Shown: positions 1-44,602 of the stretch, piece after piece
How the letters are laid out: the number at the start of each line of letters is the position of its first letter
Position numbering within the stretch: position 1 is the first letter of the stretch
Source: Thermoprotei archaeon
GTDB taxonomy: Archaea; Thermoproteota; Thermoprotei; Thermoproteales; B15-G16
Length of the DNA stretch: 64,000 nucleotides
Direction of reading: 5' to 3'
NCBI GenBank assembly: GCA_003649205.1
Contig: QMRC01000001.1
Coordinates: 285,081 to 349,080, forward strand
Position numbers and translations under genes: made by a program
The notes under the pieces: model-generated
The model's database searches: none
What the model was told of the DNA's origin: nothing
Seen by the model: only the letters and a program-made list of their open reading frames with translations

Positions 1-1
1 T

Positions 2-151
2 GCGGATTTCATCCTATTCGGTCCAGTAAGTGATGCTGAATTCATAGTTCCTGCAATAGCAGTGATAAATGCAGCCTACGGACAGGTCCTCATGGAGGAG
101 GGAAGGCGTCCAAGACCAGATCACCCTAGGTTCAAGATATCCCGTCTATAA
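2..151 (+). CDS. C-terminal fragment of an unidentified protein (5' end outside window)
   Basis: Frame open from window edge to TAA at 149-151 (...AIAVINAAYGQVLMEEGRRPRPDHPRFKISRL*); no motif recognised. Confidence 0.3.
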   Translation, partial: ADFILFGPVSDAEFIVPAIAVINAAYGQVLMEEGRRPRPDHPRFKISRL

Positions 152-637
152 GCAATCTACAACCTTCTTCACTAATCTACATTGGGGAGGTTAGTGAGGT
201 ACCAATAGCGACTCACTAGAGCACTGATGGTAGCAAATAACTTCACTCACAGTGAATTTCTCCTCTCTACGTTGAAGTACTACTTACCTTTCTGAGCAAT
301 AGCAGTGAGTATATAATCTAGAGTGCTCCTACTTTCCTAAGTAGTGAAGTAGAGGTACTTAGCTGAGGGTAGGGGTATTAGGAATTGAATCTCCATGGCT
401 CTAGTAATTACTTAACCTATTGGGTAGTAGTGATGTGTTTTATGTAGAGGTAATGAAGGTTGGGTACAGAACCCACGTAGCGATTACGGATAGTAACTAT
501 GTAGACCTACAAATTTCACTACTGCTGAAGCACTAGTAGTGTATAGCTTTAGTTTTTCAAAGAGGTACCTAGAGGGTACTCAATAGGAGATTAATATATT
601 TTCGTTACTTTTCTGATCACATTCGGTGAGGAGTTAT

Positions 638-1285
638 ATGTCATTATCTGAGGAGATGGTTAGAGCTATTGTCGAGTTAGATGAGTCTAGAGCTATTGAG
701 ATTGCTAAGAAGAGACTTGAAGCTGGTGAAGATCCGCTCAAGATCCTCGATGATCTTAGGAGAGCTGCTGAAATAATTGGTGAGAAGTATGAGAGAGGTG
801 AGTACTTCGTCTCTGACCTCGTTATGGCTGGTGAGATCTTGAAGGGTATATCGGAGATTGTTAGACCTAAGCTTAAGGAACTTGGAGTATCTAGGAAGGT
901 TGTTGGAAAGCTCGTTATTGGTACTGTTGAAGGTGATATACACGATATTGGTAAGAACATCGTTGTGACAATGGCAGAAGCAGCAGGCTTCGAGGTTATT
1001 GACCTTGGTGTGGATGTACCACCACAGAGGTTTGTTGAGGCAATTAAACAGCATAATCCAGATATAGTTGGGATGTCAGGACTACTAACATTAGCAATAG
1101 ATTCCATGAAGAGAACTGTAGATGCGATAAAAGAGGCAGGGTTGAGGGATAAGGTAAAGATCATCATTGGTGGTGGTAGAGTAGATCAACACGCATGTGA
1201 GTACGTGGGAGCAGATGCCTGGACCAATGATGCATCGCAAGGAATAAGGATCATGCTTAAGTGGATGGAGGAGAAGAAGAGGTGA
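638..1285 (+). CDS. Corrinoid (B12-binding) methyl-carrier protein, MtaC/MtbC/MtoC-like
   Basis: DxHxxG cobalamin-ligand signature (GDIHDIGKN), downstream MSGLLT and IIIGGG motifs, N-terminal helical cap. ORF track starts at GTG 626, but ATG 638 follows GGTGAGGAG and is the likelier start. Confidence 0.9.
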   Translation: MSLSEEMVRAIVELDESRAIEIAKKRLEAGEDPLKILDDLRRAAEIIGEKYERGEYFVSDLVMAGEILKGISEIVRPKLKELGVSRKVVGKLVIGTVEGDIHDIGKNIVVTMAEAAGFEVIDLGVDVPPQRFVEAIKQHNPDIVGMSGLLTLAIDSMKRTVDAIKEAGLRDKVKIIIGGGRVDQHACEYVGADAWTNDASQGIRIMLKWMEEKKR

Positions 1286-1289
1286 TTGC

Positions 1290-2567
1290 ATGAGTAGGCA
1301 ACCTATAGATGAGTGGATAGAAAGACATGAGAAGGAACCGGATGTAGTAGCTAAGGAGAAATTAGAGAGATTGCTGAGAGTACTGGAGCTGAAGACCCCA
1401 GATAGAGTACCCATTAATGGCGTCATGGGTGATTTCCAGTGTAAGTACACTGGAGTAACATGGTACGAACTTTCATACGATCTAGATAAAGCAAGAGCTT
1501 CTACCTTAAAAATGCTGCACGACTTTCCAAGTGACTTCGCGATAACTTTCGTTCCAATGATGCTGGAGGGGTTCATACTAGCACTAGCCTTTGCTGACTA
1601 TCCCGACTTCTCAAACACAATAAGATTCCTAACAGGCTTCTATCACGATATATTGAGAGACCAATGGACTAAGTGGCCCGGTAGAGAACTTAGGAAAGAT
1701 CAGCACCCTCAATTCCCTGGAGGAAACTTCATGAAACCTGAGGAGTACAAGCACCTCATCGAGAACCCAATAGAGTTCATACACAACACCATACTGCCAA
1801 GAGCTTGCCCAGGTCTTGGAAAGCCTGGCTCCTCTCAATGGAATGGTGCTCTGATAAGGCTTGGAATGGCTATACAGAGAATAGTATCATTCCAGAGTTC
1901 CTTCTTTGCAGAAATCATGAAGCGCGGTTACGCTGCCTTACCAATGACTAATGCATACACACCCGCAGATATCATTGGTGACTTCCTCAGAATGCCAACG
2001 GGAGCTATGCTAGATATGAGGAGGTATCCAGACTTATTCAAGGCTGCATGTGAAGCTCTGGTAGAGCATGTAATTAAGGTAGCTACAGCAATACCGCCAA
2101 GTCCACCAGCAACCTTGTTCTTCATACCCCTACATCTAAACGAAATGCTATCACCAAAACTCTACAATGAGTTCTACTGGCCATACCTCAAGAAGATTAT
2201 AGAGACATTGGTATCTAAAGGTTATAAGGGCTTCATATTCTTTGAGGGTGATCATACACCACATCTAGATACTATTCTAGAGCTTCCAAAAGGATGGGGC
2301 ATAGCATGGTTTGAAAGACCTAGAGACTTCATGAAGGTTTGGGAGAAGCTTAAAGGACATACGACAGTCATGGGAGGAGTACCGACAAACCTACTTGTAG
2401 CAGGAACGCCAGAGAAGATTGAAGAGCATATCAAGAATCTGCTAAACCAGGTAAAGCCTGAAGGAGGATTCATAATATCGTTAGGCAATGCAGAGCTACC
2501 TGCAGGAACACCTGTTGAAAACGTTAGAGCTTACATAAACGCAGTACTGAAGTACGGTGTGTACTAG
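1290..2567 (+). CDS. URO-D/MtaA-superfamily corrinoid methyltransferase, paralog 1
   Basis: Family pattern ...LKTPDRVP..., RWPGRE, FIPLHLNEMLSPK, FFEGDHTPHLD, GG.P..LL..GTPEKIEEH...GGFI...G..LP.GTPVENV.A. Starts 4 nt after the corrinoid protein stop. Confidence 0.8.
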   Translation: MSRQPIDEWIERHEKEPDVVAKEKLERLLRVLELKTPDRVPINGVMGDFQCKYTGVTWYELSYDLDKARASTLKMLHDFPSDFAITFVPMMLEGFILALAFADYPDFSNTIRFLTGFYHDILRDQWTKWPGRELRKDQHPQFPGGNFMKPEEYKHLIENPIEFIHNTILPRACPGLGKPGSSQWNGALIRLGMAIQRIVSFQSSFFAEIMKRGYAALPMTNAYTPADIIGDFLRMPTGAMLDMRRYPDLFKAACEALVEHVIKVATAIPPSPPATLFFIPLHLNEMLSPKLYNEFYWPYLKKIIETLVSKGYKGFIFFEGDHTPHLDTILELPKGWGIAWFERPRDFMKVWEKLKGHTTVMGGVPTNLLVAGTPEKIEEHIKNLLNQVKPEGGFIISLGNAELPAGTPVENVRAYINAVLKYGVY

Positions 2568-2602
2568 ACGTAAATACTACCAATAATAAGACTCTTTACA
2601 TA

Positions 2603-3832
2603 GTGAAAAATGAAACTTTTTTCAACTATTTTAACAAAAAGTGTAACACAGAAGTGTGGTCCCAAATGAGTCAAACGCAACAAGCTGGAATTCTATCAGT
2701 GATTTTGTTGGTACTATCATCATTCCTAGCGGGTGTTGGTTTTGGTATCTATGCGCCATTGATACCCATACAAGCAACAGAGTTAGGTGCACCTGAAGCT
2801 ATTGCCACGGCAACAGTCCTAGCATTACCGTCGATTCTCGCAGTACTAGTGATGCTTCCTATGGGTATACTTGCTGATAAAACTGGTAGGAGAAAGGAAA
2901 TAGTTATGATTGGACTCCTACTTGGAGCTGTATTTAATGCATTGCTAGGCATAGCTACAAGCTGGGTTGAGCTAGCTATCTATAGGGCTTTTACGGGCAT
3001 AACCTTTGCATTGATATCGATATTTCTGTCAATAGCAGTTCTCATAGCTCCTGAGAGACTACGAGGAACTGTTATAGCTATTATGGGTGGAACTATGATG
3101 CTTGGAATGGGGATTTCACAGATGTTTGCTGGAGCTGTGTTCACAGCTCTTGGAAGAAGCTACCGAGCTCTGTATTTCCTTGCAGCTGCAGTAGCTCTTG
3201 CCGCAGCAATAATACTACTACCTGTTAAAGTTCCTAGGGTTCAGCTTCCAGCTATGAAGGGTTCCGATATCCTTGAGGCTTTAAAAGCGAGAGGTGTTTA
3301 CTGGGCTGGCATGGCTATACTTGTCTACCTAGTTGGATGGAATCTCATGTACCCATCTCTACCGATAGTTTTAACCTACATCTATAAAGCACCTCCAGAG
3401 ATTTCTAGCTTAGCTCTTGGCGTTGCATCTCTCATGCTGGGCTTAGGTACGTACATTTGGGGGCCTATTATCGATAAATTAGGTGGTAGAAGGACGTTGA
3501 TACTTGCCATACTCGCATCAGCTATAACAACGTTCGTAATGTATCCTGCTCTAGGCAACATGTGGGCATACATAGTACTATTTTGGATAGTGACATTCTT
3601 CGGTGTAGTAGGTGCTCCGGGTACGAGCTATGTGGCATCAAGAAGTGTTAAACCGGAGTTGATCTCAATTGCGCTTTCGACTATCTGGATATTCACGTCA
3701 TTAGCTGGAATAATAGGTGGGTTTGTAGCAGGTGCTTCAATAGCATCGCTAGGGCTTGCAACAACAATACTCATAGCAGCCGCTATAGAACTTGTAGGGG
3801 GTATACTGATGTTTGGATTACCTAAGGTATAA
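2603..3832 (+). CDS. MFS transporter
   Basis: About 12 predicted TM segments and the loop motif GILADKTGRRK between TM2 and TM3. Real start may be the internal MSQTQQ. Confidence 0.85.
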   Translation: MKNETFFNYFNKKCNTEVWSQMSQTQQAGILSVILLVLSSFLAGVGFGIYAPLIPIQATELGAPEAIATATVLALPSILAVLVMLPMGILADKTGRRKEIVMIGLLLGAVFNALLGIATSWVELAIYRAFTGITFALISIFLSIAVLIAPERLRGTVIAIMGGTMMLGMGISQMFAGAVFTALGRSYRALYFLAAAVALAAAIILLPVKVPRVQLPAMKGSDILEALKARGVYWAGMAILVYLVGWNLMYPSLPIVLTYIYKAPPEISSLALGVASLMLGLGTYIWGPIIDKLGGRRTLILAILASAITTFVMYPALGNMWAYIVLFWIVTFFGVVGAPGTSYVASRSVKPELISIALSTIWIFTSLAGIIGGFVAGASIASLGLATTILIAAAIELVGGILMFGLPKV

Positions 3833-3867
3833 GAAATACTTCGTATTAGTGAAAAGAAGGTGAATAT

Positions 3868-5133
3868 ATGAGTAAACAACCTATAGAGGAGTGGATGGAA
3901 AGGCATAGAAAAGAACCAGACATAGTAGTAAAGGAGAAAGCTGAGAGATTTCTAAAAGCTGTAGAGCTTAAGGAACCTGATAGAGTACCGTTAATGTTCT
4001 TTACATGTGGTCACGTATTTGCAAAGTGGTTTAAACTTTCAGAAGTATACTTCAACTACAGCAAGATGAGAGATGCTATCGTAAAGTTTGTCACTACCTT
4101 CCCTTCAGACATATTTATCGCTGCTCCTGCAGCTGAAGGCTTTGTATTGGCTGTAGCTTTTGCCGATGTTCCGCAGATAGCTCCTGTTGTTAGATTTATA
4201 ACAGGACCTATGCACGATATTTTAAAGGACAAGTGGACTAGGTGGCCTGGTAGGGAGTTAGCGGAACATCTACCGTTTCAATTTATTGGAGGAGAGTACA
4301 TGAAGCCTGAAGAGTACAAATACCTTATTGAAAATCCAGTAGAGTTCATACACAACACAATTCTACCGAGAGCTTGTGAAAATCTCTCAAAACCTGGCTC
4401 AGCACAACATGCACATACGATAGCTAAGTTAGCACTTGAAGCCATTAACTACCTAAATGCTTTAACGGAAATAAATAATACCTTACTGAAACTAGGATTC
4501 CCACCACTAGCAATAACGTTTGCATATGCACCTCTAGACTTCATAGGAGATTTTCTTAGACATCCTACAGGAGCTATGTTAGACATTAGGAGACGTCCAG
4601 ATGAGGTTAAGCAAGCTACGGAAGCTCTCATTAAGCCAATATTGCAAGTAGCGTTTATACTTAAACCTACAGGAGCTAAGTTCGCATTCATACCGTTACA
4701 CCTTAACTCAATGCTCTCTCCAAAGCTATATGATGAGTTCTATTGGCCATACCTAAAGAGAGTTATAACAGAACTCTATAGCAATGGTATAAAGTCATTT
4801 GTGTTATTTGAGGGTGATCATACACCGCATCTAGATACGATCCTAGAACTTCCAAAGGGCTGGGGCATAGGGGTATTTGAGCGTGGTGATATAAGGAAAA
4901 TCAAGGAGAAGCTGGAGGGTCACACATGTGTTGCTGGAGGTATATTACCAGGACAGTTAATAGGTTGGAGTCCTGAGAAGATAGAGGAGTACGTTAGAGA
5001 GCTTATAAAGGATCTTGCTCCTGGAGGAGGCTTCATACTAGCTCCAGGGATAGCGGAAATAGACCCAGCAATACCAGACGCGAACCTTAGAGCTCTAATA
5101 AATGCTGTTCTCAAGTACGGTGCACGTAAGTAG
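3868..5133 (+). CDS. URO-D/MtaA-superfamily corrinoid methyltransferase, paralog 2
   Basis: Collinear with the 1290-2567 product and clearly the closest of the three paralogs (SKQPIEEWMERHRKEPD..., RWPGRELAE, FIPLHLNSMLSPKLYDEFYWPYLK, LFEGDHTPHLDTILELPKGWG). Confidence 0.8.
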   Translation: MSKQPIEEWMERHRKEPDIVVKEKAERFLKAVELKEPDRVPLMFFTCGHVFAKWFKLSEVYFNYSKMRDAIVKFVTTFPSDIFIAAPAAEGFVLAVAFADVPQIAPVVRFITGPMHDILKDKWTRWPGRELAEHLPFQFIGGEYMKPEEYKYLIENPVEFIHNTILPRACENLSKPGSAQHAHTIAKLALEAINYLNALTEINNTLLKLGFPPLAITFAYAPLDFIGDFLRHPTGAMLDIRRRPDEVKQATEALIKPILQVAFILKPTGAKFAFIPLHLNSMLSPKLYDEFYWPYLKRVITELYSNGIKSFVLFEGDHTPHLDTILELPKGWGIGVFERGDIRKIKEKLEGHTCVAGGILPGQLIGWSPEKIEEYVRELIKDLAPGGGFILAPGIAEIDPAIPDANLRALINAVLKYGARK

Positions 5134-5147
5134 GTTGGGGTGTTAAG

Positions 5148-6425
5148 TTGATGACTGTAGATGTCTCAGCTAAGTTGAGGGAGAGAAAGGAGAGAATTGA
5201 GAGAGTTCTCACGGGTAAGGTGCCTGATCGTGTCCCATTTATACCTTCCTTCCACTTTTTCCCTGCTAGGTACATTGGTGTGAGTTACGCTGATTACTCG
5301 TCAGATTACAGGTTGTTTGTAAAGGCTGTGTTTGCTGTCTATAGGGATTTCGACTTTGATCTAGCTGGTTTAGCTCTTCCTGGAGCAGGCATGACTCTAC
5401 CGCTAAACTTTATCTTCATTGAGAGGTACCCAGATCTAGCAACAACAACATTCGCAATTGCGAGACCCTTCCACGATATTCTGAGAGATAAATACACTAG
5501 GTGGCCTGGTAGGGAACTTCCACCTAATGTTTCTGCTCAATTTATTGGGGGTAAGTTTATGGAAGCTGAAGAGTATGATGAGCTTGCTGAGAATCCTATA
5601 GAGTTCATTTCTAGGAAAATTATTCCTCGAGTTTACGAGGCTCTTAGAGACCCTACATCACCTGAAGCTTACGGAGCATTAGTTAGGTTTGGGATGGAGG
5701 TTGTGAAGTTCAGTGGTGCGCTCATGGAGTTAATGACCAAGTTGAGGGAAGAATTGGGATACCCCACAATTCCTCTGGGTATGGGATATGCACCGTTAGA
5801 CTTCATAGCTGATCACCTTAGGCACGTAACTTACACACTTACCGATCTCTATAGGTATCCTGATAAGGTTAAGAGAGCTTTAGACGCTTTAACACCTCTA
5901 ATTATAAAGTGGAGTAAGGCAAGCGTTTCACTACCGCCAAGCGTTCTTGAGGCATTTGATATAAAGATTCCACTTGTATTCATACCACTTCACTTAAATG
6001 AGATGGTTTCACCGAAATTCTTTAGGGAGTTCTACTGGGAACCTTTAAAGAGAGTTATTATAGAGCTTGTGAATGCTGGTGCGATTCCATGGATTTTCTT
6101 TGAGGGGAACTTCACACCATTTCTAGAGTATATCCTAGAGCTACCAAAAGGAAAAATAATAGCCTACTTCGAGCGTACGGATCTTAGGAAGGCTAGAGAG
6201 GTTTTGGGAGATCACGTTATAATCATGGGTGGTATATCACCGGCACTCTGCATCTATGGAACTCCAGAAAAGGTGTTTGAAGAGGCTTGTAAGCTCTTGA
6301 GCGATGTTAAAGAGCCTGGGGGATTCATATTTGCTGGTAGTCGTGTAGCTGGGATACCTGATGAAACAAAGCCAGAAAATCTGAGGGCTCTCATAGAAGC
6401 GGTAAGGAAGTGTGGGAGGTACTGA
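5148..6425 (+). CDS. URO-D/MtaA-superfamily corrinoid methyltransferase, divergent paralog 3
   Basis: Same blocks in diverged form (VPDRVPF, RWPGRELP, FIPLHLNEMVSPKFFREFYW, FFEGNFTPFLEYILELPKG, GTPEKVFEEA...GGFIF). Confidence 0.75.
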   Translation: MMTVDVSAKLRERKERIERVLTGKVPDRVPFIPSFHFFPARYIGVSYADYSSDYRLFVKAVFAVYRDFDFDLAGLALPGAGMTLPLNFIFIERYPDLATTTFAIARPFHDILRDKYTRWPGRELPPNVSAQFIGGKFMEAEEYDELAENPIEFISRKIIPRVYEALRDPTSPEAYGALVRFGMEVVKFSGALMELMTKLREELGYPTIPLGMGYAPLDFIADHLRHVTYTLTDLYRYPDKVKRALDALTPLIIKWSKASVSLPPSVLEAFDIKIPLVFIPLHLNEMVSPKFFREFYWEPLKRVIIELVNAGAIPWIFFEGNFTPFLEYILELPKGKIIAYFERTDLRKAREVLGDHVIIMGGISPALCIYGTPEKVFEEACKLLSDVKEPGGFIFAGSRVAGIPDETKPENLRALIEAVRKCGRY

Positions 6426-6668
6426 AGCTATCACGATACGAGGGGTGTTATCTAGCTGGGAAAGTATTACGGTTATGGTGGGGAGTATTCCATTTCTACT
6501 GTGAGAAGACAGGTACTTGAGGGAGGGGAGGGAGGAGATTTCTCATCGATACATTTACCATGGGTGTCTCTAGTCTTCAAGTAGCTGTGAATTTCCTTGC
6601 TGTGTCTAACAAACAGAGTTTTCAAATACTTTGTGGAGACTAATGACCTTATGGATGCTTGAGGTGAA

Positions 6669-8477
6669 ATGATGAGCGTCGTGGTAGTGTTTGAGCCTAT
6701 GGGGAGGAGGGTTAGGGCTTCTCCTGGTACTATTCTTGAGATTGCTAGGGAGGGTAATGTTCCTTTGCGGTCGGATTGTGGTGGGAGGGGGGTTTGTGGT
6801 AAGTGTAGGGTGGTTATTGTTGATGTGAAGGGGGAGATTAGTGAGGTAAGTGAGGTTGAGAAGAGGCATCTAACGCAGGAGGAGTTAGCTAGGGGTTATA
6901 GGCTTGCTTGTCAGGTGAAGGTGCTTAGTGGGTGTGTAGTGGTTTTTGTGCCTCCTGAGAGTAGGGTTGGTGTTAGGAAGGTTGTTGAGGGTGTGGTGGA
7001 GAGGAGGGTTGAGTTGAGACCGGCTGTGAGGAAAGTGCATCTTAAGTTGCCGGAGCCAAGTCTTGAGGATAATAGGCCTGATTTTGAGAGGTTGAGGGAT
7101 TTTCTAGGTGATGTTGAGATTCCTCTAGACTTACTGAGGAGGCTTCCGATTTTGCTTAGGGAGGCGAAGTGGGATGTTACTGTAGTTCTGTGGGGTAACA
7201 AGTTGATTGGTATTGAGAAGGGGGATACGAGTAATAGGGTCTTTGGTTTAGCGATAGATATTGGTTCTTCGAAGATAGTTTGCCATCTTGTTGATCTTGT
7301 TAGTGGGGAGACTGTAGCTAGGGGCTACATCGAGAATCCGCAGGTGGTGTATGGGGAGGACGTTGTTTCTCGTATAACCTACGCATCGAGGAGTGAGGAG
7401 AATTTGAGGAGGTTGCAGAGGATTGTTGTTGATGCTATAAATGAGGTAATTGATAGGCTATGTAAGGAGGCTGGTGTGAGGTTTGATGAGATTTATGAGG
7501 CTGTAGTGGTTGGGAACTCTGTGATGCATCATCTCTTCTTTGGTATTTATCCGAAGTTCATAGGTGTCTCTCCCTTTACACCAGCTGTTAGGAAGGGGAT
7601 AAGTTACCCGGCTAAGGAAGTGGGGCTTAGGATGAATAGTGAGGGGTACGTTACTTCACTACCGCTCATAGCTGGTTTCGTTGGTGCTGATGCTACGGCG
7701 AATCTCATAGTGACGAAGATTCACGAGAGGGATGAGGTAAGTATGGTGATAGACATAGGGACTAATACGGAGATTCTCCTTGGTAATAGAGATAGATTGC
7801 TCGTGTGCTCAGCGCCTTCTGGACCGGCTTTTGAAGGGGCGCACATAAGTCATGGTATGAAGGCTGTTAGTGGGGCGATTGAGAGGGTGAAGATTGTGGG
7901 GGATGAGGTTATCTACGAGACTATTGACAATGTTAAGCCAAGAGGGATATGTGGTAGTGGGATGATAGATCTAGTAGCTGAACTCTATAGAGCGGGGTTG
8001 ATAAATAGGTATGGGAAGTTCATTGGGGAGTCTAAGAGGATAGTTAAGGATCGTATTCCGAGGTTTGTTGTTGCTTGGGCAGATGAGACTGAGACAGGGA
8101 AGGAGATTACGGTTACGGAAAGGGATATAAATGAACTTCTACTAGCGAAGGCAGCAATAAGGGCAGGTTGGATGATTTTAATGGAGAAGCTCGGGATTAA
8201 GGAGAATGAGATTTCGAGGATTTACCTAGCTGGTTCCTTTGGGAGACACGTAGATGTTGAGAATGCGAAGCTCATAGGATTACTTCCAAAGGTTCCAAAC
8301 GATAGGGTGGTCTTTGTTGGGGATATAGCTGTTATTGGTGCAGAGATGGCACTTAAATCTGTTGAGGAGAGGAGGAATATTGAGAAGGTAGTTAACTCCA
8401 TTGAGTACATTGAGCTATCTGCAGACAAGAACTTTTACCAAACTTTCATAAAAGCAATTCCAATAGAGGGGGAGTAG
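6669..8477 (+). CDS. RACo-type reductive activator of corrinoid proteins (2Fe-2S ferredoxin domain + ASKHA ATPase, DUF4445)
   Basis: N-terminal plant-type ferredoxin Cys cluster (SDCGGRGVCGKCRV...LACQ). ASKHA phosphate motifs AIDIGSSKIV and DIGTNTEI, plus GICGSGMIDL. Confidence 0.85.
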   Translation: MMSVVVVFEPMGRRVRASPGTILEIAREGNVPLRSDCGGRGVCGKCRVVIVDVKGEISEVSEVEKRHLTQEELARGYRLACQVKVLSGCVVVFVPPESRVGVRKVVEGVVERRVELRPAVRKVHLKLPEPSLEDNRPDFERLRDFLGDVEIPLDLLRRLPILLREAKWDVTVVLWGNKLIGIEKGDTSNRVFGLAIDIGSSKIVCHLVDLVSGETVARGYIENPQVVYGEDVVSRITYASRSEENLRRLQRIVVDAINEVIDRLCKEAGVRFDEIYEAVVVGNSVMHHLFFGIYPKFIGVSPFTPAVRKGISYPAKEVGLRMNSEGYVTSLPLIAGFVGADATANLIVTKIHERDEVSMVIDIGTNTEILLGNRDRLLVCSAPSGPAFEGAHISHGMKAVSGAIERVKIVGDEVIYETIDNVKPRGICGSGMIDLVAELYRAGLINRYGKFIGESKRIVKDRIPRFVVAWADETETGKEITVTERDINELLLAKAAIRAGWMILMEKLGIKENEISRIYLAGSFGRHVDVENAKLIGLLPKVPNDRVVFVGDIAVIGAEMALKSVEERRNIEKVVNSIEYIELSADKNFYQTFIKAIPIEGE

Positions 8478-8590
8478 GGAAGGAAATGAAGAGATCGAGA
8501 TATTTTGAAGTCATCCAAGGAGAATTGCCATAGCTGTACTTGTTATTGCTTATCCAACGGTTGAGCAGATGAGGAGCTACAAATTCCCTT

Positions 8591-9109
8591 ATGTGGTGGT
8601 TTGTGGTGAGGCTTGAGGTAGGGCCTGGTTATACAAGGAGAGGTAGAGGCTATAGGTTTAATCCTCATTACGAACCAGGTTACGATGTAGTGTACCTCGA
8701 TGTCAACCAACCAGATTTTAAACTTAGTAGAAGTACATGGGTGGTTGCTGATGCTCAAAACCTACCATTTAGGAGTAGCTCAATAGATGAGGTGTTTTCA
8801 GCTCATGTCATTGAGCATTTAGAGAAACCGATGAAATTCCTAGAAGAGTGTAGAAGAGTTCTGAAGAGGGGAGGTGTAGTCACGATTGAAACTCCAAACT
8901 TCTTGTCTAAGTACGCCTATCTCGATCCAGATCACAAGCATGTGTTCAACATTGTGAAACTCTGGGTGTCGGTTAGGAAGGCTGGTCTGAGACCTCGCTT
9001 CCCGCCTCTGAACATAGGTTCTCTTATTCCTCAAAAATTAAGACTTCTTATCAGGTTAGTCCTACTACTTCTCTCGGATAACCTTACCATTAGGGGCGTG
9101 AAGGAGTAA
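8591..9109 (+). CDS. Class I SAM-dependent methyltransferase (Methyltransf_11-like)
   Basis: VADAQNLPF....IDEVFSAHVIEHLEKPMKFLEECRRVLKRGGVVTIETPN. Motif I is degenerate (LEVGPG). Confidence 0.55.
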   Translation: MWWFVVRLEVGPGYTRRGRGYRFNPHYEPGYDVVYLDVNQPDFKLSRSTWVVADAQNLPFRSSSIDEVFSAHVIEHLEKPMKFLEECRRVLKRGGVVTIETPNFLSKYAYLDPDHKHVFNIVKLWVSVRKAGLRPRFPPLNIGSLIPQKLRLLIRLVLLLLSDNLTIRGVKE

Positions 9110-9221
9110 GGACCCTGAAGATGGAGTTGAAGGTGTTTGTAAGTGTTTAGTTCTCTGATCCTTTCATATTGTGAACATCTTAGCGTCTAGTGTGGGGCTA
9201 CTCTTCGGCATCCTTGAAGTG

Positions 9222-10055
9222 CTATGTTCTTTTGCTTTGTCTTGGTTTGATGAGCCATGTGTCGAGTTCTTCTATGTACTTGATCTCGTATCTCTGCTTT
9301 ACCTGGTTTATTTTCCTCTTTATCTTGCTGTAGATTCCGTCATCTCTTACTATCTTTCCGTGCTGTTCTAGGTCGAGGAATTCTCTCTCTAGGTTTTCTA
9401 TGGCTTTTTCTGCTTCTTCTGGTGTGTAGGCTCTTATGTCTAGGTCTATTTCATCTGATAGGAGGAGGAGGTATCGCTGTATGCTTGGTGGGGGGAGGTT
9501 TTCTGCTATGAGGATTACGTCTATGTCGCTCCATGGTCTCCATATACCTTTTGCTCTTGACCCTATGATGGCTGCTAGCTTGATCTTTATGCCTTTCTTC
9601 TCTAGTTCTTGAAGCCACTTAAGTACCTCCCTATAGGCTTCTCTTCCATTCTCTAGCTTTCCTATGTCTGGTGTGCAGTCGTGTTCTCTTAGCTTTAGGA
9701 ATATCTCCCTTGTTCTGTAGTACATTGTCTCTACTCTTTGTTTGTTGTAGTACTCTTCTGAGATTCCATATCTTTGTCTGGCATCGGGGTACCTGCTTGC
9801 GTAGTAGTGTATTGTGAGTTCACGTAGGAAGTTAAGTTCTTCTGGAGTTAGTTGGTATCCTCTTGCAAGTAGGTGGAGAGCATGCGTTTTCGTAGGTTTG
9901 TATCCTCTCTTTATCAAGAGAGCTTTTAGTAGGAATTCAAGAGCTTGATGGAGATGGAATACTGCGAGTTTGTAGAGTCCTCTAGTTAGGAGGATATCTG
10001 CTGCATCTAGGTGGGAGTAAGCTGATTCCACATACTCATCTACGCTTTGCATCAT
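9222..10055 (-). CDS. HEPN domain fused to minimal nucleotidyltransferase (HEPN-MNT fusion)
   Basis: N-terminal HEPN helices (AADILLTRGLYKLAVFHLHQALEFLLKALL). C-terminal GS-x10-DxD NTase motif (IGSRAKGIWRPWSDIDVILIA). Confidence 0.75.
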   Translation of the reverse strand: MMQSVDEYVESAYSHLDAADILLTRGLYKLAVFHLHQALEFLLKALLIKRGYKPTKTHALHLLARGYQLTPEELNFLRELTIHYYASRYPDARQRYGISEEYYNKQRVETMYYRTREIFLKLREHDCTPDIGKLENGREAYREVLKWLQELEKKGIKIKLAAIIGSRAKGIWRPWSDIDVILIAENLPPPSIQRYLLLLSDEIDLDIRAYTPEEAEKAIENLEREFLDLEQHGKIVRDDGIYSKIKRKINQVKQRYEIKYIEELDTWLIKPRQSKRT

Positions 10056-10160
10056 CCATCTCTAGCCCCTATCTACTTTCTCGAGGTAGCTCTAGTACCT
10101 ATCTTGAGAGGTGATCTCTTGCAGGGTTTCCCTTCTTACTACCTACCTTATCTATGTCTG

Positions 10161-10571
10161 TTAGTAGCTATGTCTTGTCTTGAAGCCTAGTTCGTCTCTA
10201 AAGCACCAGAGTCCTTCTCCGAAGTCTAGGAGTACGATGCCTAATTTACCTAGGAGTTTATCGTTTAGGAGTACAGTGCTTATGCGTGAGATATAGGGGT
10301 ATGCTGGTACTGGTCCGACAACTCTATCTTCTGTGACTACGTACACGTTGACTGGTTCAACACATCTTACTAGGTTTATGGTAGAGCCATCGGCTAGAAT
10401 GCGTTTTACGGTTATGGTGGGTGGTTTATTGCCGAGGAGTTCTCTTGCTAGTGGTTCAGGTAGCATGATCTCTGGTTCGGCACCAATGAAGCCACTGTTG
10501 GCGAGTGCGAGGGTTTCAATGCATTTACTCTCTACTTGGAGTCTTACCCTTAATCTCAGCACGTGGCTCAC
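10161..10571 (-). CDS. Retropepsin-like (clan AA) fold protein with NSG in place of the catalytic DTG/DSG
   Basis: ETLALANSGFIGAEPEIMLPEPLARELLG aligns with the ...DTGA....lp..la..LG pattern. C-terminal VLLNDKLLGKLGIVLLDF resembles the second retropepsin block. Confidence 0.35.
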   Translation of the reverse strand: MSHVLRLRVRLQVESKCIETLALANSGFIGAEPEIMLPEPLARELLGNKPPTITVKRILADGSTINLVRCVEPVNVYVVTEDRVVGPVPAYPYISRISTVLLNDKLLGKLGIVLLDFGEGLWCFRDELGFKTRHSY

Positions 10572-11178
10572 CTAATAGCTCTGGTGGTAGGATGGTGAGT
10601 ATAGCGAACTTTGGTTCGAGTACTTCGGGTGGGAGTACTGTCGCAATGAGGTTCTCCATTGAGAAGCCCCATCTGTAGTGGTTGCTGAGGTTTATCTTAA
10701 GGTTTACTTCGAGATTGTTAGTTGGTATGTACCATCCTTACCTGCACTTAGTGAGCTTGGACTTGGGTTAACCTAGTCTGCGATATTATTACTCATTAAT
10801 GAATTGGTATTGCAGGGTACATAACGTAGTGTCTTATCAGCAAGATGGTGCTCATCTGCTCTTTACAGGAAGTTTGCACTAGAACAGGGATTAGAATAAG
10901 GTAGTAGGTACTGAACGATGAGGGATATACATGGAGTTTAGACTACACATGATCTACAGAGCAGCCTTAGTACTCGATGTTCTAGGGATTTCACACTAAT
11001 AGCATACAGCAGATTACTTACAGCACACATAGTACGCAATGCAAGACACGGAACTAGTGAAACATCTGTGAAGGGATCAAAATGACCAAGAGAACAAGTC
11101 CTCTTATCCACTGGAAGATAATTGAGAGCACGTTCCTGTCATAGCTTTGAAGCTTAGGGGCCTGGTGAGTGAGAGCCA

Positions 11179-11676
11179 TTGTGGTATTCGGTCTGCAGGG
11201 TGATTGGGTTAGTTGTAGCTGTACTTATTTTGTTTTTATGTTGTATTTCTGTGGTGATTGGTGTGGGTGTTATTGAGAGGGTGAGGATTTATCTTGAGGA
11301 TGCTTGGGAGTTCTATAGGCGTGGTAGGGAGGAGCTTTTGAGAGGTCTTGAGAAAGGATATGTGTATGAGGTGAGGGATGGTGCTGAGAAGCTTTGGAAT
11401 GCTGTTGTTCAGGCTACTAATGCTCTAATTCTTCATCTCTTAGGTTTGGTTCCTGCTAGTCATTGGGAGTGGAGGAGGAAGTTGATGGAGCTTGAGGGTA
11501 GGTTTGAGGAAGTTGGTAAGCTTGGTCTCTGTGATAGGTATTGTGCGAGGGAACGTCATCTACGTGGTATGACGTTTTATGAGGGTATAGTTGATGAGGA
11601 TTTGCTTAGGTATGAGGTGCAGAAGGTTGAGAGGTATCTTAGGGATGTTGAGGATCTAATTCGTAGGTTAAGGTAG
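11179..11676 (+). CDS. PaREP1-family (HEPN-related) protein
   Basis: YLEDAWEFYRRGREELL...VRDGAEKLWNAVVQATNALILH matches the PaREP1 helical pattern. The hydrophobic N-terminal 35 aa may lie upstream of the true start. Confidence 0.6.
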   Translation: MWYSVCRVIGLVVAVLILFLCCISVVIGVGVIERVRIYLEDAWEFYRRGREELLRGLEKGYVYEVRDGAEKLWNAVVQATNALILHLLGLVPASHWEWRRKLMELEGRFEEVGKLGLCDRYCARERHLRGMTFYEGIVDEDLLRYEVQKVERYLRDVEDLIRRLR

Positions 11677-11746
11677 TACGCTGCTCCTTGACTCTTAATT
11701 GAGATCTTCTACTCTATCTGTTGAGTAGTTGTTGAGGGATTTTTCC

Positions 11747-12160
11747 CTATACGTAGGTGTGTACTTTGTATCTCTTTTCCTGGTCTTTCCATGGTTTTAG
11801 GTAGTTGAAGTAGAGGTATTCGTAGAGGTTGAGTTCATTTCTTGCCCATATTACTACGTGGTTTTTAATTATTGATATCTGGATGTGGAGTGGTAGTAGT
11901 TCAAATACTCTGAGGTCGTATTTACTGAAGTCTAGTGGTACTTCTCTCCATGCTTCCTGTATGAGCTGTATTCCTTCGTCTGGGTTTTTCCTTGTTTCTG
12001 GTACTACGAGGCATATGTCTATGTCTGATCGTGGTGTTGCTTCTTTGCGTGCATGTGAGCCGTAGAGTAGTATTGCTTCTACTTCTCTGTGTTTTTCGAG
12101 GAATTTACTGAAGGCTTCTCTAACTGTCTTGATTATTGTCTCGATTTCTTCTGTAGCCAT
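11747..12160 (-). CDS. mntA: Minimal nucleotidyltransferase antitoxin (MntA-type)
   Basis: ILLYGSHARKEATPRSDIDICLVV (GS-x9-DxD). Overlaps the upstream DUF86 gene by 28 nt. Confidence 0.8.
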   Translation of the reverse strand: MATEEIETIIKTVREAFSKFLEKHREVEAILLYGSHARKEATPRSDIDICLVVPETRKNPDEGIQLIQEAWREVPLDFSKYDLRVFELLPLHIQISIIKNHVVIWARNELNLYEYLYFNYLKPWKDQEKRYKVHTYV

Positions 12161-12573
12161 TTCTTAACTACCTCACTGAACTCTACTACGGAATTTCTTA
12201 ACTTAAGTATGCTGGTGTAGGCTAATCTATCGTCTATGCCATTGTACCTATGTACCAACACGTTCCTGAGACCATTTAGTTCACGTAGTTTTCCAAGTAG
12301 TTCATCCGTGATCAATCCTAGCTGCTTTAGGGTGTGTAGGTTTGTGTAGTCGTCTTTAACGACTTTACCCTCGTCTCTCACCATCATTGCGACAATATCC
12401 ATTATGCAGTCAGCTAGTTCCTGTACCACTTTGTACACTGCTTTCTTAGTTTTTACGTCTCTCAGAAATTCCTCTATGTTGGGTGGTATCCACTCCTTGA
12501 GTAGTGTTAGGCATTCGTGTATGAATTCCAGCTTCTCTTCGTATCTCTTTATGCGTTCGGTATCTAGTTTCAT
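12133..12573 (-). CDS. hepT: HEPN/DUF86 RNase toxin (HepT-type)
   Basis: Rx4HxY motif present (GLRNVLVHRYNGID). Size and pairing with the MNT gene are typical. Confidence 0.85.
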   Translation of the reverse strand: MKLDTERIKRYEEKLEFIHECLTLLKEWIPPNIEEFLRDVKTKKAVYKVVQELADCIMDIVAMMVRDEGKVVKDDYTNLHTLKQLGLITDELLGKLRELNGLRNVLVHRYNGIDDRLAYTSILKLRNSVVEFSEVVKKWLQKKSRQ

Positions 12574-13671
12574 GATACTTCCTCTCTGATTTCTTGGATT
12601 ATGTCTTTTGGTTCTATGTTTAGTGTTTGTTTTTGTACCATGGTTCTTATTGTCCAGTAGTGTGCTGGAAGTTGGTATGCTGTGTCTTCTCCGATCCAGT
12701 ATGTCTTACTTGGTTTCTTGTCTAGCCATTTGCTGTATAGTGGTGTTACTATGTTGTTTCTCAGCATGTAGTCCCATATTGGGTGTAGTTCGAGTTCATC
12801 TATGTTGTCTAGTGTTTGCTTTAGTTCCTGTAGTACCTGTATTGGTGGTTTCTGTTTTTCTCTGCAGTATTCCTTGATTGTTGTCTTCACTATCTCGATT
12901 ATCTTCTGAAGCCAACTGCCTATGTTCCATTTCTGTATGTGTAGTTCGTATATTGCTCTTGGGTTTCCTCCTGTTAGTTGCCAGAGTTGGTTGTGGTTTA
13001 GTGGTGTTTTTAGTTTGTTCAGTAGTTCATCATGTGCCTCTCTATCTAGGTTCCATATCTGGTACATGAGTATGTTCTTACCTTCTTCTCTCTTGAAGTG
13101 TTTTTGCTGCTGTTTGTTCGCTTGTTAGTAGGATTACGTGTACTTGACATCTGTGCTCGTGTGCTATGTCGTAGATTTCCTTGCTTAGTCCTGTTACTAG
13201 GTCTCTTATCGTTAGTCTGTACCTGTTTAGTGGTACTGTTACTTCATCGAATATGAGCACTAGTTTCCTTCCTTTGAGGTTTAGTCTCTTGGCTATGTAC
13301 TTGACGATGTTGTAGAGGTGGAGTAGTAGTTTTGCTCTATCTCCTACTAGTTCCTTGACTAGATTTTCTAGGGCCTCTACTACGCTGTCTTCGGTTGCTA
13401 TGTAGAATTCCTCTCTTACTGCTGCTTTTGGTAGGTTCATGTACGTGATCAGGATTTCTGGGTCTTGTTGTAGTGCGTGTGTTGTCGCTCTCATGAATTC
13501 CGTTTTTCCGCAGCCCCATGGTCCTGTTATTACGAGGTTTAGTGAGTGTTCTGGTTTTGTTTCTTCGCCGTACCTTATTAGCTCTAGTAGTTTCTCGTAT
13601 TCTCGATCTCTATCTACGAAATTTATGTTGAGGTCTGGGACTATGTACTTGTGTAGTTTCGTGGTTTTCAT
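12570..13671 (-). pseudogene. Arch_ATPase (PF01637-like) paralog interrupted by a frameshift
   Basis: ORF 13078-13671 carries the Walker A (GPWGCGKTEF) and stops at ...TAAKTLQERRR*. In the next frame the same DNA reads HFKREEGKNILMYQIWNLD, collinear with the intact paralog (HFLREQGKNMFTYLMWNLS). The shift maps to a T5/A5 run at 13101-13105. Confidence 0.75.
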
Positions 13672-13871
13672 TGGTTATTCGTCTATACTTTGTTCCTTTG
13701 GTGTTTATAATTCTGTTCTCTGCTGTGTTGTTTGAGGTGTTTTGTCTATGGTTCTTGTTTGTGGTGATGTTGTTGAGAGGATTGGGGTTATTGCTAGGTT
13801 TTCTGAGGTTGCTTTTTGTTGCTGTTGTCGGTTCTGTTGCTGTGAGGAGGTATTAGTTAGTTGTTGAGGCT

Positions 13872-14186
13872 ATGAACGATTCCTGTAGGCACATTGTCTC
13901 AGCTAGAGGTTGGGGTCCTGATTTCTCAGCTAAGGACTTCGTGGAGCTAGCTGTTAAGCACGGTGTTGTGTCTAGTGAATTAGCTAGGGAGATCATTATG
14001 GCTATTCGCTTGGGGAGTATAATCGTTTACAGGTACCTAGGTATTAACTATGAGGAGCTCTATAGGGGGGTTCAAAAGCTCACTACATTAGCTAGGGATT
14101 TTGAGAGGGAGGTAGTTAGCTTCCTTAGAAAGGTACTGGGTATCTCGCGAGTGAGTTATCTAGGTGTTCTCCTCTATAGTCTCTAG
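13872..14186 (+). CDS. Degenerate DUF86/HEPN remnant
   Basis: DUF86-like C-terminal half (HGVVSSELAREIIMAIRLGSIIVYRY) with the Rx4HxY site destroyed. N-terminal half missing and no partner NTase. Confidence 0.4.
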   Translation: MNDSCRHIVSARGWGPDFSAKDFVELAVKHGVVSSELAREIIMAIRLGSIIVYRYLGINYEELYRGVQKLTTLARDFEREVVSFLRKVLGISRVSYLGVLLYSL

Positions 14187-15311
14187 TACCTTTCTCGGTG
14201 TTGGTTTTTCTCCGGTTTCAAGTGCTGTCTTCAGTATCCAATAGTAGATTGGTGTCTGGAATGCGTACTCTCTACCAATCCATGGCTCTCCTCTAGGTAT
14301 CTTCGATAGCTTTCTAAATCTCTCATCGATGTTCATCACTATGTTCTCCTCTATCAACCTCCTAGATACTATGTACTCTGGTAGCTGAATACCTGGTTGA
14401 TATGGCTTTACACAATCTACACACTCAACTACTTCCCTTAGATAGTTCTCTACACTTAGATCTTGAGCTAACTTAATGAGCGGTAGTACCTTCCCTATCT
14501 TAGCACTTAGGTACCGATCTAGATTCCACCTCCATGCCCTTAACTCAGCTACTTCTCTCGGATTTCCTCCTGTTACCTTCCACACTAGCTCGTAATCTAA
14601 TGGGCACTCTAGCTTTTGGAGTAGTTGCTCTGTTGCTTGTTTACTAAGATTCCACATCAGGTACGTGAACATGTTCTTTCCCTGTTCTCTTAGGAAGTGC
14701 TGAACTGCTGTCTGATCACTAGTAAATGCTATTGGGTACAGGTACTCTAGCTCAAGTTCATCCCTTATCTCAAAGATCTTGTAGCTCAAGCTACTAACGA
14801 AGTCCCTAATGGTTACTCCATACTTCTCAAGGGATTTAGTAACCTCATCTATCAGCAATATCACTTTTGCACCTCTTACTCTGAATCTCTTTGATAGTTC
14901 TCTGAGGAATGTGTAGAGCTGTATTGGTACCTTAGCTACGTCACCTAGTACGTTGAGTACTATCTCCATACACGTCTCCACTACTCTCGATCTAAGTGGT
15001 TGAAAGACCTTACTTAGGTCCTGCTCTGTTAAGTCCATGTATATCGCTACGAAGTTCCCATAGCTGTCTAAGGCATGAGCTAGTGCTCTCGCGAACTGAG
15101 TTTTCCCACAACCCCACGGTCCTGTCACTACAAGTAGATGTTCGTAACCTCTCTCACGTATGTGCTCCTGAAGTAGTGTCTCAACTTCGTACTCTCTATT
15201 CACGAACTCTATCCCAAGATCAGGTACGCGGTACCTGTACAGTTTACTCACTACATCACGCATCCCATACCTCGTCAATGCTCTACTCACTCCCCATGCT
15301 TTACACCTCAA
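14160..15311 (-). CDS. Arch_ATPase family P-loop NTPase (intact paralog)
   Basis: Walker A GPWGCGKTQF and Walker B ILLIDEV. Conserved blocks MWNLS, GGNPRE and WIGREYAFQTPIYYW are shared with three other copies in the window. Confidence 0.8.
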   Translation of the reverse strand: MRCKAWGVSRALTRYGMRDVVSKLYRYRVPDLGIEFVNREYEVETLLQEHIRERGYEHLLVVTGPWGCGKTQFARALAHALDSYGNFVAIYMDLTEQDLSKVFQPLRSRVVETCMEIVLNVLGDVAKVPIQLYTFLRELSKRFRVRGAKVILLIDEVTKSLEKYGVTIRDFVSSLSYKIFEIRDELELEYLYPIAFTSDQTAVQHFLREQGKNMFTYLMWNLSKQATEQLLQKLECPLDYELVWKVTGGNPREVAELRAWRWNLDRYLSAKIGKVLPLIKLAQDLSVENYLREVVECVDCVKPYQPGIQLPEYIVSRRLIEENIVMNIDERFRKLSKIPRGEPWIGREYAFQTPIYYWILKTALETGEKPTPRKVLETIEENT

Positions 15312-15494
15312 TCTAGCTTAAGTACGTTGTTACCTTGATCCTCACTACATCTCCACTGTGATGTCCACTCAGTACCTAGTGCACGATCCTGTCTCAGGAT
15401 TTTTATAGGTGTGTTAGTTCTGATCTCTCGGGAGGACTCCTCGGTGAGGACCTAGTTCTCGGGCTTCGATGATCCGAGGGCCGGGCGGCTTACC

Positions 15495-16061: not shown

Positions 16062-16193
16062 CCTACTTCAGTGAGATGTACGTATCTAAAGTCTTCTCCT
16101 ACATCTACTCAACGTAGTACCTCACATGTCAAAGACTGAAGCTTCACCTAATTTCGCATTCTATTTAAGTCCTCCACCTCCTCTACTCCCTTC

Positions 16194-16246
16194 AGGTGAT
16201 GAGGTTCGTTAGGACTGAACACTGATGACCGCTCGCGACCCTGATT
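16194..16246 (+). ncRNA. C/D box sRNA
   Basis: GTGATGA(16196-16202)-GGTTCGTTAGGA-CTGA-ACAC-TGATGA-CCGCTCGCGACC-CTGA(16241-16244); both guides exactly 12 nt. Confidence 0.8.
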
Positions 16247-16253
16247 TACTTCC

Positions 16254-17375: not shown

Positions 17376-17432
17376 CTAGACAGCACCAACCCAAATAAGA
17401 CAACAACAGAACTTTACCCTTACCCCCAACAA

Positions 17433-18064: not shown

Positions 18065-18178
18065 CTTCCAACATCATAGGGACGCAATGAATTATAAGGG
18101 ACTCAACATTATGACGCAATAATGGACGCAGTTAATTAGTGCGTCAAGTATATAAGGAGCGGTGGAACGTACTGTATC

Positions 18179-44591: not shown

Positions 44592-44602
44592 AAACACTGA
44601 AG
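44555..44602. repeat. 16-nt direct repeat pair CATAGAAACACTGAAG (44555-44570 and 44587-44602)
   Basis: Exact duplicate 32 nt apart, straddling the stop codon of the 44142-44591 ORF. Confidence 0.8.

Follow-up and report, generated by a model that had tools for sequence, protein, structure and literature searches.

A probable Mto-type corrinoid methyl-transfer system in a Thermoprotei archaeon and its candidate substrates

The DNA considered here, called the window in the following, is a stretch of 64 kb from the genome of an uncultured, heat-loving, deep-branching Thermoprotei archaeon known as a metagenome-assembled genome (MAG). Near its start lies a cluster of genes coding for a corrinoid protein (CP), three proteins of the URO-D superfamily, an MFS transporter and an ATP-dependent activase. 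We consider it very likely that this machinery is a four-component corrinoid methyl-transfer system of the Mto type ("bacterial-type") which would feed a pterin carrier. The three URO-D proteins would all be methyltransferases working on the substrate side (methyltransferase I, MT I), and the methyltransferase serving the pterin carrier (methyltransferase II, MT II) would be the product of a gene whose last part occupies the first bases of the window. As a whole explanation, such a system with methoxylated aromatics as the most likely methyl donors is in our judgement reasonably probable.

Layout of the cluster and the upstream MT II gene

The source contig of the window, found by exact match, is the 485-kb ENA ERZ1742239 NODE_2, with NCBI proteins RLE57920-RLE57982 and locus tags DRJ40_015xx ("Thermoprotei archaeon"). 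Positions given for locus L001 are in the numbering of that locus, a piece of the source contig which includes 8.7 kb upstream of the window. A preliminary description of the window postulated a complete Mto/Mtv-like corrinoid methyl-transfer module of six co-directional genes in a Thermoproteota genome. The six open reading frames (ORFs) are found at the coordinates it gave, all on the + strand within 626-8477 and with the domains it described (Pfam E-values from 1e-10 to 1e-88), and the list of parts together with the identities to MtoB and MtoA agrees with a module of this kind. The word "complete" could not be kept. The URO-D proteins are MT I without exception, and to make the module whole the MtrH-family gene upstream, which is cut by the window start, has to be counted in. 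The features are the following:

1-151, + strand: last 50 codons and stop codon of an MtrH-family MT II, MtoA-like (NCBIfam, similarity to MtoA)
152-637, + strand: non-coding spacer of 486 nucleotides (nt) between the MT II and corrinoid protein genes
638-1285, + strand: corrinoid (cobamide-binding) protein, MtoC/CdmC-like, 215 amino acids (Pfam, motifs, PDB)
1290-2567, + strand: MT1, substrate:corrinoid methyltransferase (MT I) of the MtoB/CdmB/MtvB radiation, 425 amino acids (PDB, MtoB identity, tree, model)
2666-3832, + strand: MFS transporter, 388 amino acids (Pfam MFS_1; longest ORF from 2603)
3868-5133, + strand: MT2, second MT I paralogue, 421 amino acids (PDB, MtoB identity, tree)
5151-6425, + strand: MT3, third MT I paralogue, 424 amino acids (PDB, MtoB identity, tree; alternative TTG start at 5148)
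6672-8477, + strand: RACo/MtoD-type ATP-dependent reductive activase of the corrinoid protein (Pfam, PDB; ORF from 6669)

The intergenic gaps are 4-35 bp from the corrinoid protein gene to MT3, and 243 bp precede the activase. Gene starts were refined from the gene calls of the source contig. The starts for the MFS transporter (2666), MT3 (5151) and the activase (6672), all later than originally read, are probable ones, and the corrinoid protein probably starts at the ATG at 638, with a GTG at 626 as the alternative. A gene for an S-adenosylmethionine-dependent methyltransferase (Methyltransf_11) at 8591-9109 on the + strand, 113 bp past the activase, was considered as a further member of the module and rejected; it is probably unrelated, since the eight related loci compared have no counterpart of it.

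The corrinoid protein (ORF 626-1285) contains the domains B12-binding_2 (PF02607, 1.9e-27) and B12-binding (PF02310, 2.3e-15), in agreement with the N-terminal helical cap and the Rossmann B12 domain of Mto-type corrinoid proteins. The DxHxxG motif attributed to it at the outset is present as DIHDIG at residues 104-109 and is followed by SxL...GG. The protein matches the corrinoid protein of the D. hafniense O-demethylase (PDB 4jgi) with 3.7e-54 and is 46% identical to CdmC. The activase has an N-terminal [2Fe-2S] ferredoxin domain, with the motif CX5CX2C...C, followed by an ASKHA ATPase. Its assignment as a ferredoxin-ASKHA protein of the RACo type is borne out by Fer2 and three RACo domains in Pfam (RACo_linker, Raco_middle and RACo_C_ter, down to 7.4e-88) and by a full-length match to RACo of C. 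hydrogenoformans (PDB 3zyy, 6.9e-126). With the activating enzyme of A. dehalogenans it shares 32% identity.

The gene cut by the window start codes in full for 302 amino acids; it begins 757 bp before the window (L001 7954-8862) and has the same direction as the module. The protein scores 307 bits against the NCBIfam model NF002142 (MtrH family; cut-off 287) and is 44% identical to MtoA of Methermicoccus shengliensis (E 5e-88). Its top PDB matches are the soluble MtrH-like proteins 8z9u (1e-76) and 6sj8 (3e-56), and subunit H of the Mtr complex (9qtp) comes lower (7e-43). BLAST gave nothing against CdmA and merely 33 bits against MtvA. By these similarities the protein is a soluble MtoA-like MtrH homologue, not a component of the Mtr complex, and it is predicted to be the MT II that 626-8477 lacks; no second MT II gene was found elsewhere in the 64-kb window. 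The original statement that no mcr, mtr or coenzyme M genes are visible holds for mcr and coenzyme M and has to be corrected for mtr, as bases 1-151 are the 3' end of this mtrH-family gene.

With its 486 nt, the stretch that separates the MtrH gene from the corrinoid protein gene is an unusually long spacer. A motif scan gave an A/T-rich TATA-like box, TTAATATATTTT, at about 590-601, and a GGTGA ribosome-binding site is found at 625-629 ahead of the ATG at 638. Judged from these predicted motifs the spacer probably carries the promoter of the unit from the corrinoid protein gene to MT3, and possibly of the activase too. Rfam gave no match in the spacer even at E<=1, and the spacer folds slightly better than its shuffles (z = -2.15), a weak signal. 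The word GAGGTAC, of which the spacer has three copies, was considered as a specific operator and was dropped because it is over-represented window-wide: on both strands 55 copies were seen against 12.3 +/- 3.2 expected from dinucleotide-preserving shuffles, with palindromic overlaps at 41691-41700 and 43492-43501. The excess could be due to codon or peptide bias or to a genome-wide motif.

Directly upstream of the MtrH gene lies a type I-A-like CRISPR-Cas locus with Csa3, Csa5 and Cas7/DevR (L001 1-7800, which is 0.9-8.7 kb before the window). In its array (L001 4802-6444) the 25-nt repeat GAATCTTGATTAGAAGAATTGAAAG occurs about 24 times, and two more, partly degenerate repeats are located at L001 7694-7787, about 170 bp ahead of the MtrH start.

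The three methyltransferases

MT1, MT2 and MT3 are all recognised by Pfam URO-D (1.8e-31, 3.5e-21 and 2.2e-33, respectively), a model which fits well to their C-terminal half only. Over the full length they align with CdmB (PDB 9rui; 1.1e-70, 2.8e-66 and 2.3e-72), the chloromethane-dehalogenating MT I of Acetobacterium dehalogenans described in 2026 (PMC13222342). The identity to the characterised MtoB proteins is 39-42% for MT1, 40-42% for MT2 and 40-43% for MT3 (268-306 bits), that to CdmB about 35% (34.7-35.5%) and that to MtvB 29-33%; similarity to OdmB, VdmB, CmuA, MecC/E and UroD is marginal. Supplementary Data 2 and 3 of PMC13222342 served as the source of the references for MtoB, CdmB, MtvB and others; there the longer ones end at about 400 amino acids. 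It had been proposed in the preliminary description to place the methyltransferases by models and trees, and this gives MtoB as the nearest reference, then CdmB and MtvB, with MtaA, MtbA and OdmB far off. Among the paralogues MT1 and MT2 are 54% identical, and MT3 is 41-43% identical to each of them. Their least conserved part is the N-terminal extension, with 20-35% identity at residues 41-115 vs 46-66% at residues 231-330. A search of a library with 1.84 billion representatives (50% identity) gives 98 clusters of the family at E<=1e-30, and 710 when the limit is E<=1e-10.

Trees were made by bootstrapped neighbour-joining (numpy) in two runs of 500 replicates each, with UroD as the outgroup. 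The orthologues of MT1 form a clade with 99-100% bootstrap support, those of MT2 one with 78-79% and those of MT3 one with 87-91%. The four characterised MtoB proteins group together with 100%, and a monophyletic CdmB clade which leaves out MT1-3 has 99%. MtvB falls into a separate bacterial subclade with A. dehalogenans paralogues (90%), and the whole radiation of proteins of about 420 amino acids is set apart from Odm, Vdm, Cmu, Mec and UroD with 81%. The distance of MT1-3 is 2.5-2.8 to UroD vs 1.0-1.1 to MtoB. The branching among the groups is poorly supported, and MT1-3 should therefore be called MtoB-like MT I and not demonstrable MtoB orthologues. Taken together, the sequence comparisons make all three substrate-side MT I of the MtoB/CdmB/MtvB radiation, and none of them an MT II.

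An AlphaFold2 model of MT1 (predicted local distance difference test score, pLDDT, 95.7; predicted template modelling score, pTM, 0.93) has the TIM barrel of UroD and MtaA. In Foldseek the best matches were HemE structures, at 13-16% identity, and the neighbours include MtaA (4ay7/4ay8) with template modelling scores of 0.57-0.71; the PDB copy that was searched is older than 9rui, so CdmB could not appear as the nearest fold. The crystal structure of CdmB was also reported to have a UroD/MtaA-like fold at low identity (PMC13222342).

We searched the columns invariant in all three window clades for a signature and found four positions (MT1 numbering): D231, H282 in the motif PLHLN, Y296 and E319. 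Each of these residues is present in MT1-3, in 4/4 MtoB, in MtvB and in 55/55 other homologues from the related loci. The CdmB clade has A or S at 231, W at 282, H or Q at 296 and Q at 319 (8/8 at every position); these states were derived here from eight members, bacterial and from Lokiarchaeia. At the level of sequence the signature separates the members of ether-cleaving type from the CdmB clade. In the model H282 follows the barrel strand 276-281 and E319 follows the strand 313-318, which is the canonical active-site face of a TIM barrel. The authors of the CdmB study regard this protein as a passive hydrophobic scaffold, since a halide needs no leaving-group help (PMC13222342); the text of that paper does not name the CdmB channel residues. 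The acid/base-capable residues kept in MT1-3 would be what is expected of an enzyme that activates an ether or a similarly poor leaving group.

The transporter, related loci and known systems

The gene between MT1 and MT2 had been described as coding for an MFS importer. Its position and family stand (ORF 2603-3832; MFS_1, PF07690, 4.7e-38). Import was an assumption: symporter and efflux models match the protein equally weakly. The subfamily is a narrow one with 26 clusters at 61% identity or more, all of them from Ignisphaera, Thermosphaera or Baldrarchaeia, and the next match is at 28%. The protein is presumed to be a carrier of the substrate and/or the product which is paired with MT1.

By scanning genome contigs with very specific peptide patterns (FIPLHLN..., ..ILELP.G.) we obtained 76 related loci (numbered L002, L004 and so on below); the patterns retrieve close relatives only, without A. 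fulgidus and M. shengliensis. In these loci the corrinoid protein gene stands directly before an MT I gene almost universally. MAGs of Nezhaarchaeota, Methanomethylicota, Baldrarchaeia and Sulfolobales/Desulfurococcales show MtrH and RACo genes as neighbours. In the relatives from bacteria (Tepidanaerobacter, Thermovenabulum, Thermovorax, Fervidicola) there are arrays of corrinoid protein and methyltransferase genes with RACo and without MtrH. An extreme expansion of the MtoB-like family in a bacterium is seen in L077 (Bacillota MAG AS10tlH2TH_59, 1-12700), where about ten MtoB-like MT I genes in tandem share one strand with three corrinoid protein genes placed among them. In L013 and L014 (Baldrarchaeia MAGs) the order CP-MT1-MFS-MT3 comes before an activase gene that stands between two different MtrH-family genes; this may reflect two alternative acceptors of the methyl group, or two specificities of MT II.

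The MFS gene adjoins the MT1 orthologue in L002, L004, L005, L007, L008, L013, L078 and L080. One Ignisphaera genome has the triad CP-MT1-MFS alone, beside an RNA polymerase operon. The nearest relative found is L028, from a Desulfurococcales MAG, with 87% identity for the corrinoid protein, 89% for MT2, 84% for MT3 and 81% for RACo; at the position of MT1 and MFS it has a different MT I and no MFS gene. To the Ignisphaera counterparts MT1 is 77% and the MFS protein 67-71% identical. The threonyl-tRNA synthetase of the window is about 60% identical to those of Thermofilum, Infirmifilum and Ignisphaera alike. Because the Ignisphaera identities exceed that of the synthetase, and because L028 has a different MT I without MFS, we suggest from the sequences that MT1 and MFS form an exchangeable cassette which was probably acquired laterally. 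The similar distance of the synthetase to all three genera fits a host from a deep Thermoprotei lineage.

In a Thermosphaera MAG the triad belongs to an island with a methyltransferase-MFS-MATE module and ECF/CbiQ transporter genes. The island is seen in L080 and L081 (both Thermosphaera sp. MAGs; 2379-18587) as URO-D-MFS-MATE, CP-URO-D-MFS and two more URO-D genes, followed by an ECF-type CbiQ and an ABC ATPase. It suggests paired uptake and efflux and a possible link to cobalt or cobamide, and its methyltransferase-MFS-MATE module recalls the uptake-plus-efflux pair at the M. shengliensis cluster.

The mto cluster of Archaeoglobus fulgidus consists of MtoC (AF_0006), MtoB (AF_0007), an MFS protein (AF_0008), MtoA (AF_0009), MtoD (AF_0010) and a second MFS protein (AF_0013), with induction on 2-methoxyphenol (PMC8359953). 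In M. shengliensis the genes are those for MtoB1/B2, MtoC, MtoA, MtoD and MFS/efflux proteins; MtoA was assigned there, and MtoB was found to act on methoxybenzoates but not on methanol or trimethylamine (PMC8630106). The window has the same five types of parts as these two organisms (a corrinoid protein, MtoB-type MT I paralogues, an MtrH-type MT II, an activase and an adjacent MFS gene) and the local order CP-MT I-MFS of A. fulgidus, and it shares the four signature residues with them at 39-43% identity for MT I and 44% for MT II. It differs in having three MT I, each in a clade outside the characterised MtoB, in having its MT II as a separate upstream unit 486 nt away, in an MFS protein from a lineage-restricted subfamily, and in the host, a Thermoprotei archaeon for which no downstream C1 pathway was seen in the window or in the 8.7 kb upstream.

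Among solved structures, CdmB from the CdmBCA system of A. dehalogenans is the nearest to each of the three MT I, and a Cys-type metal site is absent both in CdmB and in MT1-3. However, MT1-3 fall outside the CdmB clade and keep the D/H/Y/E residues, the window has an MFS gene, and its MT II is MtrH-like whereas CdmA is a pterin-binding protein (MtqA-like). With MtvABC of Moorella thermoacetica the window shares the MT I family of about 390-430 amino acids, D231/H282/Y296/E319 and the dependence on a corrinoid protein; MtvA, in contrast, is a MeTr-like tetrahydrofolate enzyme and not MtrH-like, and MtvB has its own bacterial subclade. For OdmB and VdmB (Acetobacterium, Desulfitobacterium) and MtgB (Bathyarchaeia) the overall reaction is the same, a corrinoid-dependent cleavage of ethers in which a corrinoid protein, an MT II and an activase take part. 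OdmB and VdmB, however, have about 320 amino acids and stand far off within the URO-D superfamily (BLAST E-values no better than 1e-4 to 1e-7), and MtgB is unrelated to known MT I (PMC10989822). Clusters with "bacterial-type" MT I have been reported in 31 of 297 Bathyarchaeia MAGs (PMC10989822).

Homologues of mtoABCD were already listed in Nezhaarchaeota WYZ-LMO8 and Verstraetearchaeota SJ3.Bin21, among others (Welte et al., 2021, PMC8359953). We recovered clusters of these two genomes as L006 and L012, which we assume to be the ones meant by Welte et al.; their MT1 orthologues are 74% and 72% identical to MT1, and their MT I is 39-41% identical to A. fulgidus MtoB. Both have the same MtrH, RACo and corrinoid protein neighbours as the window and differ from it by having one MT I, no adjacent MFS gene and a divergently oriented MtrH gene. 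The window locus is a further member of a known archaeal Mto-type group, and Mto homologues in TACK archaea have already been published.

Candidate donors, alternatives and significance

The proposed mechanism is built on homology to the systems above. A methylated solute would enter by way of the MFS carrier, and MT1, MT2 and MT3 would each bind their own range of substrates and methylate the cobamide of the one corrinoid protein in its Co(I) state, forming CH3-Co(III). The MtrH/MtoA-like MT II would pass it on to a pterin carrier, most likely tetrahydromethanopterin as proposed for MtoA, and the RACo/MtoD-like activase, by its homology to 3ZYY, would use its [2Fe-2S] cluster and ATP to re-reduce accidentally oxidised Co(II) to Co(I). 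The methyl-pterin could then enter a Wood-Ljungdahl-type methyl branch, a pathway reported for Ignisphaera MAGs only. That the preliminary description left the methyl donor open was justified. As a best guess methoxylated aromatics are put forward, because the list of parts and the order CP-MT I-MFS match the A. fulgidus mto cluster and because the polar residues are common to MtoB and MtvB; on this sequence evidence we hold them to be the most likely substrates by a little better than an even chance.

Several points weigh against an aromatic donor, or against parts of the proposed pathway. All three methyltransferases lie outside the characterised MtoB clade, in a distance tree whose nodes among the groups have less than 50% support, and their own clades hold no assayed enzyme. 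CdmB demonstrates that members of the radiation can switch to non-ether substrates. For D231/H282/Y296/E319 a role in the active site is suggested by secondary-structure position in the model and not by coordinates. The MFS protein is not tied to the carriers of aromatic acids (the top NCBIfam match has about 33 bits and the top PDB match, VMAT, about 1e-4). In the 64-kb window no genes for mcr, the Mtr complex, carbon monoxide dehydrogenase/acetyl-CoA synthase (CODH/ACS) or cobamide synthesis were seen, and genes of the tetrahydromethanopterin and Wood-Ljungdahl pathways were seen neither there nor in the 8.7 kb upstream.

The alternative to be taken most seriously keeps the machinery and lets at least one of the MT I clades use another class of donor, with the MFS protein carrying that solute; candidates in hydrothermal sediments are O-, S- and N-methyl compounds, e.g. 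methoxylated non-aromatics, methylated thiols or methanol. It is a possible but distinctly less probable explanation. In its favour are the separate clades of MT1, MT2 and MT3, outside those of characterised MtoB and CdmB, the divergence peak in the N-terminal extension, which in CdmB builds the substrate channel (PMC13222342), an MFS subfamily with no detectable relation to known aromatic-acid carriers, and the many clades of the family which are marked "unknown substrate" in PMC13222342. Against these stand the four signature residues, common specifically to the two assayed O-demethylase lineages, a gene order which copies the A. fulgidus mto cluster, and the finding that M. shengliensis MtoB does not act on methanol or trimethylamine (PMC8630106). 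A narrower shift of donor, to dehalogenation of chloromethane or other haloalkanes as in Cdm, with the MT I as passive scaffolds channelling methyl halides to Co(I), appears very improbable. CdmB is the sole solved homologue, matched over the full length at 1e-66 to 1e-72, MT1-3 are like CdmB in having no conserved Cys and hence no Cys-type zinc site, and archaeal CdmB homologues occur in Sigynarchaeales (PMC13222342). However, the identity of about 35% is below that to MtoB and under the at least 40% which defines the CdmB group (PMC13222342), the CdmB clade (99% bootstrap) leaves out MT1-3, and its four substitutions (A/S231, W282, H/Q296, Q319) are absent from them. The MT II is moreover MtrH-type and not CdmA-type, and a gas would need no adjacent MFS carrier.

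The remaining alternatives question the role of the URO-D proteins themselves. One of the paralogues might be an MtaA/MtbA-like MT II to a thiol such as coenzyme M, which would link the cluster to methanogenesis or thiol methylation. Enzymes of the MtaA type have a zinc site of His/Cys/Cys. MT1-3 have no conserved Cys among them, and such a site therefore cannot form. What could speak for this role is the presence of MtaA among the structural neighbours, together with weak matches to NCBIfam models; these matches have 16-32 bits against the MtaA and MtbA models (cut-offs 400-600) and 16-59 bits over all MtaA/CmuA-family models (cut-offs 235-600). Both the N-terminal extension and the residues invariant in MtoB-type MT I are present in all three proteins, a dedicated MtrH-type MT II is present, and the window has no mcr or coenzyme M genes; we give this idea hardly any weight. 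That the proteins are genuine HemE, clustered with B12 genes by coincidence, has next to no likelihood. Clustering with HemE was the outcome that the preliminary description had named as refuting its reading, and in the trees the three proteins do not group in this way. Pfam calls all three URO-D and HemE gives the best matches in the older Foldseek PDB copy, but the identity to these structures is 13-16%, the hemE model TIGR01464 gives 22-40 bits against a cut-off of 303, the Pfam fit is good in the C-terminal half only, UroD is a distant outgroup of the tree, and the adjacency of corrinoid protein and methyltransferase genes is conserved across the 76 loci.

The remainder of the window holds genes for housekeeping, glycosylation, transporters, toxin-antitoxin systems and archaeal ATPases. 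HEPN/nucleotidyltransferase toxin-antitoxin-like genes are located at 9222-10055 and 11747-12573: one fused HEPN-nucleotidyltransferase protein (277 amino acids) and one pair of NTP_transf_2 and HepT-like genes overlapping by 28 bp. Five archaeal ATPase genes or fragments (PF01637, ATPase_2) lie in 12570-17375 and 27245-28249, and two of the pieces, 12570-13067 and 13078-13671, seem to have arisen from a single gene that was split. The only pterin/folate-related gene of the window, of the 5-formyltetrahydrofolate cyclo-ligase family (39071-39811), shares 4 bp with the beginning of a gene for endonuclease dU. The region 42900-45720 is poor in ORFs and has short ones only; in 42.8-45.8 kb there was no Rfam or tRNA match, and among the ORFs tested around it Pfam matched only 44142-44591 (bPH_5) and 45725-46252 (TYW3-like).

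The locus does not overturn the current understanding of these systems, and its useful leads are the three clades, the mobile MT1-MFS cassette and the signature distinguishing CdmB from the O-demethylases. The clades define three orthologue groups of MtoB-like enzymes which nobody has assayed, the four residues could sharpen the annotation of the MtoB/CdmB family in metagenomes, and for O-demethylation in a heterologous host the CP-MT1-MFS cassette offers itself as a candidate that is compact and thermostable. More speculatively, and with a rather low probability in our judgement, MT1-3 may not be aromatic O-demethylases but modules that give specificity for other methylated substances in hydrothermal sediments. 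By these, deep-branching, mcr-free Thermoprotei would live as non-methanogenic methylotrophs, a way of life not recognised before, the mobile CP-MT1-MFS cassette spreading the substrate ranges. If this is true, the methylotrophy would use an MtrH-type MT II and a Wood-Ljungdahl methyl branch, and the cassette would move among Ignisphaera, Thermosphaera, Baldrarchaeia and the lineage of the window.

With the Mto-type system itself, methyl harvesting of the methoxydotrophy type would be extended to a deep Thermoprotei lineage. Ignisphaera MAGs have been reported to contain a complete Wood-Ljungdahl pathway together with an "orphan" MtrH of unclear role (PMC6421429). A Mto-like system would explain the MtrH of Ignisphaera and would give the "orphan" MtrH genes of non-methanogenic Crenarchaeota a concrete job.

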